From a virus (Duplodnaviria > Caudoviricetes), in the IMG/VR virus record IMGVR_UViG_3300021979_000003, positions 1 through 64,000 of that record: 64,000 bases of DNA. One strand, 5' to 3'. The notes beneath the pieces are model-generated. The model did no database searches. It was given only the letters and a program-made list of their open reading frames with translations, and was not told the origin of the DNA. How positions within the stretch are numbered: position 1 is the first letter of the stretch; every line of letters starts with the position of its first letter. Of this stretch, positions 54,069 through 56,427 are shown piece after piece. A program made the translations under genes and the position numbers.

Positions 54069-54533
54069 TCATTCGTGTTTGGCATATAACTCACTCCGTT
54101 TTAAATGATGTTTGATATCATAAAGATATTTTGTATCTTTTCGGTAAAACAAATATGCAAATACAGGAAAGGCTAGACCTAATCCCACTGATAGTATTAT
54201 GGCACATTTGAAGAATATTGCAAGGGCAACATACGATAAAATAGAAACTAGGTAAAAAGTAATAAAGCGCACCGGCTGTTTGAAAAATGAAAGATATTCG
54301 GCAAGATACCTATCGTCAGGATGCGTCATGTTTTTTATAGAATTGACTCGTCTGGCTTCAATAAAAACCAGTAGTCCATAATATAGATTGAAACTAGCAC
54401 CAACTATAGCCAATGCTTTAAAGGAAGGAAAGATAGCCAAAACAATTATTAGCACGATATTAATAATGAAAAATATCGAACGATAAAGAGAAGCATTGTT
54501 CAAAATCTCATAGAAATGCTTACTTATGACCAC
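54069..54533 (-). CDS. multi-TM membrane protein
   Basis: About 4 hydrophobic segments. Confidence 0.65.
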   Translation of the reverse strand: MVISKHFYEILNNASLYRSIFFIINIVLIIVLAIFPSFKALAIVGASFNLYYGLLVFIEARRVNSIKNMTHPDDRYLAEYLSFFKQPVRFITFYLVSILSYVALAIFFKCAIILSVGLGLAFPVFAYLFYRKDTKYLYDIKHHLKRSELYAKHE

Positions 54534-54667
54534 TATTTTTGCACCTCATGATATCTATATTCGCGTCCACATTTTTTACATTTGTGAATAAATTTGGGAG
54601 GAACAGTCATTACGGCAGTTCCAGTATATACTAATTTCTGATCAGGACAATCCACACAGTATTTCAT
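54533..54667 (-). CDS. small Zn-ribbon protein (44 aa, not in ORF track)
   Basis: MKYCVDCP...HKCKKCG; GAGGA RBS. Confidence 0.65.
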   Translation of the reverse strand: MKYCVDCPDQKLVYTGTAVMTVPPKFIHKCKKCGREYRYHEVQK

Positions 54668-54712
54668 ATCATTTCCTCACATATAAATATATTTATTAAG
54701 GAGTATACATTT

Positions 54713-55060
54713 ATGAAAGCTGGTGACATTATACCACAGAAAGAAAAGATGGGTAAAATAATATCTCATATTGTTAAAAACATAGACAAGGATGGGAAAA
54801 CTGTCTTTACTGGTCAGGAATTGAAAGAGAAGTATGACTATGACTTTATTCATAGTGGGCTTATAGTTACAGTCGATAAGAACATTGATCCATCGCCTGA
54901 CAGAGAATATAAGGTAGATGAGTTCTGGGGTAATGAAATTAGAATTGATATCGCATCAAAGGGTCTATCCAACTCCCAGATCAAAGAGATATTGAAAAAA
55001 GCTTTTGATGAGTATGTAGAAGTTATAAATCGAAAAAGTCAGAAATACGAACAGTTATAA
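54713..55060 (+). CDS. late protein (MKAGDII N-terminus)
   Basis: TATAAATA at 54682-54689, AAGGAG RBS, terminator hairpin AATCCCC/GGGGATT after stop. Confidence 0.75.
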   Translation: MKAGDIIPQKEKMGKIISHIVKNIDKDGKTVFTGQELKEKYDYDFIHSGLIVTVDKNIDPSPDREYKVDEFWGNEIRIDIASKGLSNSQIKEILKKAFDEYVEVINRKSQKYEQL

Positions 55061-55173
55061 AAAATCCCCCATAGGTGGGGGATTCGACATTATAGAACAC
55101 ACTTTGGCAGGCATCAAGCATTCTAATATTATTTATATAGCAATGAGTATCTTTATATAGTAAGTTTAAATTT

Positions 55174-55404
55174 TTATACTAAAGCATAGTTCAAAAAGAC
55201 ATAAAAAAAGTCTCTAAACTTGTCGTCTAAAGACTTTTTATGCTTCACCTTACGGCTATAGTTTTTGTCTCGCCCTTTCTTAGGCTCTTCGACTTTATGC
55301 TTAAACATCGGTGATGTTACTAAAGCTGCGTAATAATTATCTTTTATTGTACCTCTCCCAATATCATGCTTGTGTTTGGGAGTATTCTTTTTTCTCTTAC
55401 TCAT
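55174..55404 (-). CDS. arfA: alternative ribosome-rescue factor A homologue
   Basis: GTIKDNYYAALVTSPMFKHKVEEPKKGRDKNYSRKVKH aligns with E. coli ArfA [37 protein letters not shown]; AGGAG RBS before ATG 55404. Confidence 0.88.
   Translation of the reverse strand: MSKRKKNTPKHKHDIGRGTIKDNYYAALVTSPMFKHKVEEPKKGRDKNYSRKVKHKKSLDDKFRDFFYVFLNYALV
55199..55243 (-). terminator. long hairpin with U-tract inside arfA CDS (terminator or RNase III site)
   Basis: CATAAAAAGTCTTTAGAC-GACAA-GTTTAGAGACTTTTTTTATG, upstream of the stop codon. Confidence 0.75.
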
Positions 55405-55417
55405 TGCATTTCTCCTA

Positions 55418-55789
55418 TTACATTTTAAATCTGGCTCCCTCAATAAATTCTTCAAGTCTCTCAGGGTCCATTGAATTCAAGATACTTTCCAATGATTCAA
55501 AAGTTAGGTCGCCTGCATCATGAATGATAATAGTATCACCCATTGCAAACCTAGCTCTTAAGGTCATTGCATAACAAGTTCTTGTGTCGTTATTTATGGT
55601 TCCCTCTGGCATACCAAACTTTTTTTCTACCTTTTCAAAGTCTTTTGCCAAAAGCTTAAATATACCGTTGAGTTTACTACGTTCTTTAACATAGTCCATG
55701 TACGCAATTCTATGTAAAGAATCTACTTCCACCGACGTATTACTACCATAGCTACGAACCGGCCTGACAATTGCGATATATGATGCCAT
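55418..55789 (-). CDS. hypothetical protein
   Basis: AGGAG RBS, 123 aa. Confidence 0.75.
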   Translation of the reverse strand: MASYIAIVRPVRSYGSNTSVEVDSLHRIAYMDYVKERSKLNGIFKLLAKDFEKVEKKFGMPEGTINNDTRTCYAMTLRARFAMGDTIIIHDAGDLTFESLESILNSMDPERLEEFIEGARFKM

Positions 55790-55845
55790 ATAATTCTCCT
55801 AAAATATTGGTATAAATATTACCATAGTATGCAAAGGGAGTCAAC

Positions 55846-56427
55846 ATGAGCAACTTTTTTGATAAATTTATGGAACTATTTAAACCCAAAAAGGAAGTTG
55901 AGATTCCATATCGTAAAATACATGGGGAACCAATTATGAACATTAATGAAATTAGAAGAACTGACAAATTGTCTGACAATTTTAGACTAAGCGAGTTTCT
56001 AAAATCTCAGACTGCATCACGTAGAGGTATTTCCAACTCTCCAACAGATGAACACCTAAAGAACATGAAAATACTCGTTGACAACGTTTTACAGCCATTG
56101 AGGGAAGATATTGGGAAGCCTCTAGTGATAACAAGCGGATATCGCTCAAAAGAGCTTAATGATGCCATTGGCGGCTCTGAAAACTCACAACACTCTAAGG
56201 GACAAGCTGCTGACATAGAGTGTTTCGGAATGTCTAACCGTGAATTGGCTATATTCATCAGAGATAATTACGAATTTGATCAACTAATTCTAGAGTTCTA
56301 TAATCCTGACGAAGGTGAAAACTCTGGATGGGTTCACGTGTCATTTAATGAAGACCATAACCGCAAGGAAGTTATGACTGCTCTTTCGCAAAATGGTAGC
56401 GTTAACTACCAGTATGGAATTTACTGA
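55846..56427 (+). CDS. peptidase M15 family (probable endolysin)
   Basis: ITSGYRS, SQHSKGQAADI, WVHVS zinc motifs; TATAAATA at 55811-55818. Confidence 0.92.
   Translation: MSNFFDKFMELFKPKKEVEIPYRKIHGEPIMNINEIRRTDKLSDNFRLSEFLKSQTASRRGISNSPTDEHLKNMKILVDNVLQPLREDIGKPLVITSGYRSKELNDAIGGSENSQHSKGQAADIECFGMSNRELAIFIRDNYEFDQLILEFYNPDEGENSGWVHVSFNEDHNRKEVMTALSQNGSVNYQYGIY

Follow-up and report, generated by a model that had tools for sequence, protein, structure and literature searches.

A phage arfA gene and its neighbours

The window analysed here, a stretch of 64,000 nucleotides, covers positions 1 to 64,000 of IMGVR_UViG_3300021979_000003, an IMG/VR virus record of 239 kb whose completeness is estimated at 54%. 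It includes six tRNA genes, genes for virion proteins and T4-type late-promoter motifs, and the contig is that of a T4-like marine jumbo phage. Among cultured phages, Salicola phage SCTP-2 (440 kb) comes closest, with only 40% identity for a virion protein; an HMM search found no ArfA in this phage. The features of the arfA locus are listed in Table 1, together with the bacterial loci used for comparison.

Table 1 Features of the arfA locus (positions in the window unless a locus is named) and examples of bacterial arfA loci.
Feature	Position	Strand	Basis
arfA ORF, 76 codons including a tail that is probably never translated	55174..55404	-	ATG 55404, TAA 55176-55174
Shine-Dalgarno AGGAGA, ATG 6 nt further on	55411..55416	-	read from the sequence
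ArfA domain, residues 12-56	55237..55371	-	Pfam match and alignment to E. coli ArfA chains
ORF-internal hairpin, codons 56-67	55205..55239	-	folding, conservation, synonymous-site and recoding tests
U7 tract (F66, F67, first base of Y68), predicted transcript 3' end	55203..55209	-	sequence; adjoins core stem
Post-terminator tail codons (YVFLNYALV)	55177..55202	-	unrelated tails in relatives
Sigma-70-like promoter (TTGACT, 17 nt, TAATAT, with TG), probably early	55816..55844	-	consensus scan; putative function
123-aa orphan gene immediately upstream of arfA, probably co-transcribed	55418..55789	-	synteny
Downstream block: TATAAATA (55137-55130), 8-bp hairpin, CCCCC/GGGGG terminator with U6 (55082-55060)	55060..55137	-	
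Bacterial arfA loci among L005-L021	e.g. L005:601-801, L009:592-774, L018:553-756		

The product of the arfA ORF matched the whole Pfam ArfA model (PF03889, positions 1-44 of 44) with 53.6 bits (E 1.5e-14; the cut-off of this family is 25.5 bits), and phmmer aligned it at E ~1e-5 with E. coli ArfA chains in the PDB (5u4i, 7oj0, also 5h5u and 5mdv), which come from ribosome-RF2 cryo-EM structures. The original prediction of a clear ArfA homologue is confirmed by these comparisons: 55404-55174 encodes a true ArfA carried by a phage. Ala27 of the phage protein lies opposite E. coli A18 (NYYAALV versus NAIEALL), a residue of a short helix whose change to threonine (A18T) blocks RF2 activation (PMC8012679). 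The basic mRNA-channel stretch (KKGRDKNYSRKVKH) contains the KH motif (K54-H55, opposite E. coli K44-H45), which in ArfA docks in the mRNA entry channel (PMC8012679). Relative to the E. coli protein, the phage ArfA has a one-residue insertion in the KGKGS stretch and a basic N-terminal extension of 8-11 residues. A longer, TTG-started ORF of 93 aa (55455) was set aside, as it would run into the upstream gene and translation in the relatives starts at MSK, behind a good Shine-Dalgarno sequence.

Three other contigs with a phage-like context show synteny at this locus, the shared gene order being DUF4376, M15 peptidase, 123-aa orphan, arfA, a convergent 115-aa gene, cREC_REC and DUF3307. The relatives compared with the window were L003 (a Logan contig), L004 and L023; L004 is the same as L002 and L024 (222-kb JGI contig, 109-kb IMG/VR contig). 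The 123-aa orphan, syntenic in L003 (86% identity) and L004 (50%), always stands directly before arfA in the relatives. There were no matches to it in Pfam, PHROGs or the Atlas, its AlphaFold model, a confident one (pLDDT 79.6), gave no match below E 0.4 when searched with Foldseek against the PDB and AFDB clusters, and nothing in these sequence and fold searches connected it with ribosome rescue.

In L003 and L004 the promoter that precedes this unit retains both its -35 hexamer and its extended -10. The promoter type suggests early transcription by the host polymerase, which recognises intrinsic terminators. An exact copy of TATAAATA was observed at 55811-55818 (+), 28 nt ahead of the M15-peptidase (endolysin-like) gene (55846-56427); this copy and the -10 region of the arfA-unit promoter, which points the other way, overlap, so that a single intergenic spacer of 56 bp appears to serve both an early and a late promoter. 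The block downstream of arfA is nearly invariant in L003 and L004 and is conserved above the level of the arfA third-codon positions. It is a candidate back-stop terminator for read-through transcripts, or else a candidate separate late small RNA of about 65 nt; Rfam, searched with a permissive threshold over 54500-56000, returned sub-threshold noise only.

The same arm carries, within 19 kb, genes for Pth2 (64 bits), for a Thg1-like enzyme (130 bits), for a Nudix protein and for a protein with a cyclic-phosphate receiver domain. Neither tmRNA, SmpB, an RF-1/RF-2 domain nor RNase III was found on the contig, which is about 54% complete; the phage ArfA would therefore use the RF2 of the host and be policed by the host tmRNA.

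The internal hairpin, the U tract and the tail

The hairpin inside the arfA ORF is formed by a 5' arm (55239-55225), a GACAA loop (55224-55220) and a 3' arm (55219-55205), with 15 pairs, two of them G·U, and is encoded by codons 56-65 (KKSLDDKFRD) plus the first five bases of F66-F67. The U7 tract (55209-55203) comes directly after the 10-bp core (55234-55225 paired with 55219-55210), and the stop codon starts 26 nt past it, in agreement with the claim that a hairpin and a U7 tract precede the stop codon of this gene. The folding energy is -15.9 kcal/mol for the 15-bp hairpin and -10.6 kcal/mol for the core alone. A 51-nt segment around it folds at -18.8 kcal/mol (z = -5.45 versus shuffles), compared with only -9.8 kcal/mol on the antisense strand, where the fold is weaker because the G·U pairs turn into A·C mismatches.

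The element has the stable stem-loop followed by at least six U that characterises intrinsic terminators (10-bp core, 5-nt loop, U7); as for the G+C-rich stem that is also expected of them, G-C pairs make up 3 of 10 in the core stem of the window and 5 of 9 in that of L004. The helix counts 15 continuous pairs, or about 19 if flanking bases and a 2-nt bulge are included, and is shorter than classical RNase III substrates. Overall, the geometry points to intrinsic termination rather than to RNase III cleavage of the E. coli type. A scan of the whole 239 kb for hairpins of -8 kcal/mol or better adjoining at least six T gave 20 sites. Seventeen of them were outside same-strand ORFs of at least 90 aa and resembled ordinary terminators (-9.2 to -14.1 kcal/mol, T6-T7); the arfA element is one of the three sites located inside such ORFs. 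It matches the usual terminators of this genome in strength, and its intragenic position is unusual. Ribosomal frameshifting or transcriptional slippage on U7 was also considered and rejected: the base preceding the tract is C and not U, the hairpin lies upstream, and there is no conserved alternative frame in the relatives.

Four relatives (window included) were compared. In the ArfA core, pN was 0.01-0.12 versus pS of 0.43-0.76 (pN/pS 0.02-0.15), which indicates strong purifying selection on the phage protein. Synonymous divergence between the window, L003 and L023 was 0.43-0.63 in the core and 0-0.09 in the hairpin codons, the sole difference in the latter being a loop change (K to R) in L023. 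The hairpin of L004, the most distant of these relatives, has five synonymous changes (A-U to G-C on both sides, which is compensatory; U·G to C-G; one in the loop; and one that opens the loop-closing pair), and 14 of the 15 pairs survive together with a U6 tract. A tract of U6-U7 is retained in all four relatives. The covariation count across the four sequences found one compensatory pair, not significant versus shuffles (132/500); formal covariation being weak, we relied on the synonymous-site comparison and on a recoding test. All the 110,592 synonymous recodings of KKSLDDKFRDFF were folded and weighted by the codon usage of the phage: the window hairpin (-15.9 kcal/mol) ranked in the most stable 0.9% and that of L004 (-15.5 kcal/mol) in the most stable 1.1%, the mean of the recodings being -6.5 kcal/mol, with the peptide itself hairpin-prone. 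The hairpin therefore shows signs of selection at the RNA level, as far as comparison of these sequences can tell. The L004 hairpin is almost strand-symmetric (-15.9 versus -14.4 kcal/mol) and could stop antisense transcription as well. A further homologue, P0003 (L025, a 1.9-kb contig), is 60% identical and has only a weak hairpin ahead of a U8 run, which makes it uninformative for this comparison.

The sequence past the U tract behaves in the opposite way to the part before it. Indels of 11 and 22 nt located directly after the tract scramble the frame among the relatives, and the resulting tails (YVFLNYALV, YASLRTFSTILYS, NAYSLMFRTS) are unrelated, versus 76-100% identity in the 59 residues preceding them. 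A scrambled tail behind a conserved upstream part is the pattern that would be expected if translation normally ended at the U tract. The hydrophobic tail of about 20 codons described originally has to be shortened: only the last nine codons (YVFLNYALV) are past the U tract. The 3' arm together with the U tract encodes FRDFF, which is conserved; what follows is unconserved.

The predicted end of the message, at F66/F67, corresponds approximately to E. coli residue 56-57 (an offset of 9-10 residues). The natural product of E. coli arfA has 53-55 residues, and constructs of 55-60 residues are active (PMC3989591, PMC8012679). The predicted phage product of 66-67 aa retains the whole basic stretch and the KH motif, and has a core of more than 40 residues. 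An internal hairpin of the terminator type is thus found at the place that E. coli ArfA predicts, with signs of selection and an unconserved tail behind it.

ArfA genes of other phages and of Alteromonadales

Searches of 50,697 GenBank phages with megablast (4 kb) and tblastn (ArfA) at E 1e-3 gave no match, and PHROGs holds no family for ArfA. Relaxing the GenBank phage search to E 10 recovered weak but real homologues. ArfA is annotated in GenBank in Pseudoalteromonas phage J2-1; in Pseudomonas phage pf16 (L030) there is an unannotated ORF of the ArfA family between gp199 and gp198; and in Salmonella phage Arash an ArfA-family ORF (gp99c, L031:917-1141) is labelled 'ribosomal protein L2'. The annotation of these cultured phages is corrected accordingly, from unannotated (pf16) or misnamed (Arash gp99c) to ArfA family. 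All three genes have an ordinary stop codon that closes the ORF near the length of active ArfA, and their products are predicted from this layout to be tmRNA-independent. Gating is therefore not needed by phages.

Two further phage genes have been described. Gene g10 of Citromicrobium phage RXM is annotated as ArfA (PMC8953757), and gp30 of pelagiphage HTVC027P is annotated as ArfA and reported to be highly expressed in infection (PMC12753301); as far as term searches of these two papers show, neither mentions non-stop control. RXM g10 (L032:4308-4490, -) has an 11-bp GC-rich hairpin in the ORF right after SYTRKGR, followed by a tail of 20 codons with no clear U tract, and it may be a second gated phage arfA of the same design. 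As a separate observation, L022:2977-3117 (IMGVR_UViG_3300013132_000026) encodes a 46-aa peptide (KRGKGSYNRKVKHKK) with only the C-terminal, channel-binding half of ArfA; a small hairpin has the stop codon of this ORF in its loop, and the peptide scores 20.2 bits with Pfam, below the cut-off.

The nearest bacterial ArfAs found were chromosomal genes of Paraglaciecola, Colwellia and Pseudoalteromonas (45-59% identity over the core), in a search driven by motifs of the phage alignment and hence biased towards such relatives. Alteromonadales being closest, a marine alteromonad host is likely. These genes resemble the phage gene in their N-terminal lead and in having a hairpin and a U tract at the 3' end; they differ in that their stop codon is near the apex of a larger hairpin, whereas in the phage the entire hairpin and the U tract are located 26 nt ahead of the stop. 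Since the bacterial 3' ends differ, the phage layout is not a simple copy. The proposal that the phage has kept the bacterial circuit is consequently too simple, given that the nearest bacterial arfA genes have their stop inside a different, larger hairpin.

A side observation was made on these bacterial genes. The Alteromonadales ArfA ORFs end ...E[SP]YL[IKM]AA, the stop being placed towards the apex of a hairpin of 15-20 bp that has a U tract behind it, and the tmRNA tags of the same genomes end ...ENYALAA, ...DSYALAA and ...DTFALAA. Full-length Alteromonadales ArfA seems to bear a built-in ssrA-tag-like C-terminus, which might render read-through ArfA as unstable as the tagged product. We found no description of an ssrA-tag-like ArfA C-terminus.

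Proposed non-stop control, its alternatives and known systems

We consider it probable (about 0.6) that the locus is a functional phage arfA in which intrinsic termination within the ORF produces an mRNA without a stop codon and tmRNA thereby gates the synthesis of the protein. The homology, the hairpin geometry and conservation, and the lack of conservation in the tail are observations; from them we infer termination, tagging and RF2-dependent rescue in the following way. The unit would be transcribed early from the sigma-70-type promoter, the upstream orphan gene included, and host RNA polymerase would stop at the hairpin and U7 within the arfA ORF, so that the message would finish at about codon 66-67 without a stop codon. 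Ribosomes on this stop-less mRNA would stall at its 3' end. As long as tmRNA-SmpB has spare capacity, the peptide of about 66-67 residues would be tagged and degraded; once trans-translation is saturated, by mass mRNA decay in infection or by nuclease-based defences, the peptide would be freed by ArfA/RF2 and accumulate. Phage ArfA would then bind the empty mRNA channel of ribosomes stalled on stop-less mRNA and bring in RF2, which must be that of the host because the contig encodes no release factor, and the peptide would be released. The stem is AU-rich (3 G-C among the 10 core pairs), and termination may therefore be partial. A counterpoint to the proposed gating is the strong canonical terminator at 55082-55060, 120 nt downstream, which would catch read-through transcripts that carry the stop codon.

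That terminator, located past the stop, also speaks for the principal rival explanation. Here the hairpin would have no sensing role and would serve as a leaky terminator, as an insulator or to stabilise the mRNA; enough transcripts would read through to the downstream terminator for the working form to be the 76-aa protein with a normal stop, made independently of tmRNA. The AU-rich stem and the ordinary stops of the other phage ArfAs fit this explanation, as does the near-symmetric L004 hairpin, which could halt late transcripts that arrive in antisense from the convergent 115-aa gene. However, a functional 76-aa form agrees poorly with a tail that is unconserved and frame-shifted among relatives past the U tract, behind an upstream part with 76-88% identity; the window structure is strongly biased to the sense strand; and the full-length E. 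coli form with its hydrophobic tail is unstable (PMC8012679). We regard this explanation, with its full-length product, as unlikely. A minor alternative is that host RNase III cuts the hairpin, yielding the same non-stop mRNA with no termination involved. This is what happens to E. coli arfA (PMC8012679, PMC3989591), and with its flanks and the 2-nt bulge the helix reaches about 19 bp; but the U7 tract directly adjoins the stem, as is characteristic of intrinsic terminators, typical substrates have a longer helix, and the contig encodes no RNase III, though the host enzyme would suffice. Cleavage by RNase III is thus rated as quite unlikely here.

The gene might instead be an evolutionary passenger, captured recently from a marine gammaproteobacterial host with its hairpin included and bringing no benefit, as could be suggested by the closest bacterial ArfAs (Alteromonadales, 45-59% identity, with a similar N-terminal MSK..KK...HD.GRG lead) and by the absence of ArfA from Salicola phage SCTP-2, the closest cultured phage. 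A passenger role is very improbable, considering that at least three phage lineages, diverged from one another, have kept arfA in one and the same syntenic position, that synonymous change approaches saturation (pS up to 0.76) with pN only 0.01-0.12, and that the hairpin is unlike those of the bacterial relatives in sequence and layout.

If the gating of the phage arfA works, a lytic phage would read the trans-translation load of its host and supply rescue on demand, and ribosome rescue would be tied to phage takeover and to RNA-cutting defences. In a more speculative extension, which we consider rather improbable, the tmRNA-gated arfA would be a conditional counter-measure: silent in a healthy infection and switched on only when non-stop ribosomes accumulate (through destruction of host mRNA by the phage or through a host abortive-infection nuclease cutting mRNAs or tRNAs). 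Together with its neighbours, the Pth2, Thg1-like and cyclic-phosphate RNA-repair genes, it would make up a kit that senses damage and repairs translation. Were this reading true, there would be two classes of phages, those with gated ArfA (the clade of the window and perhaps RXM) and those in which it is always on (J2-1, pf16, Arash). The gated arfA of the window's clade and the ordinary-stop ArfA of other phages form a natural contrast, and the question of interest is what a lytic phage gains from keeping a gate that others dropped.

Non-stop control of bacterial arfA and brfA, and the existence of phage ArfA genes, were already known, so the novelty is modest. In bacteria, the arfA stem-loop leads to premature termination or to RNase III cleavage, both yielding non-stop mRNA (PMC8012679). 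The phage protein resembles proteobacterial ArfA (YhdL) in its small size, in the alanine equivalent to A18 and in the basic KGxxxY-RK-KH stretch, and its gene resembles proteobacterial arfA in having the hairpin in the ORF just past the KH motif, followed by an unconserved hydrophobic tail; it differs in being carried by a lytic-type jumbo phage and in a hairpin sequence unrelated to that of the closest bacterial genes. In Bacillus subtilis, BrfA (YqkK) is an RF2-dependent rescue factor whose gene has a rho-independent terminator in the ORF before the stop and is repressed by tmRNA (PMC8012679). ArfA was the sole Pfam-A family found for the phage protein at E values up to 0.1; the phage gene is like brfA only in its proposed gating logic, the two proteins have no sequence homology except for the KH motif, and by Pfam the phage protein is an ArfA.
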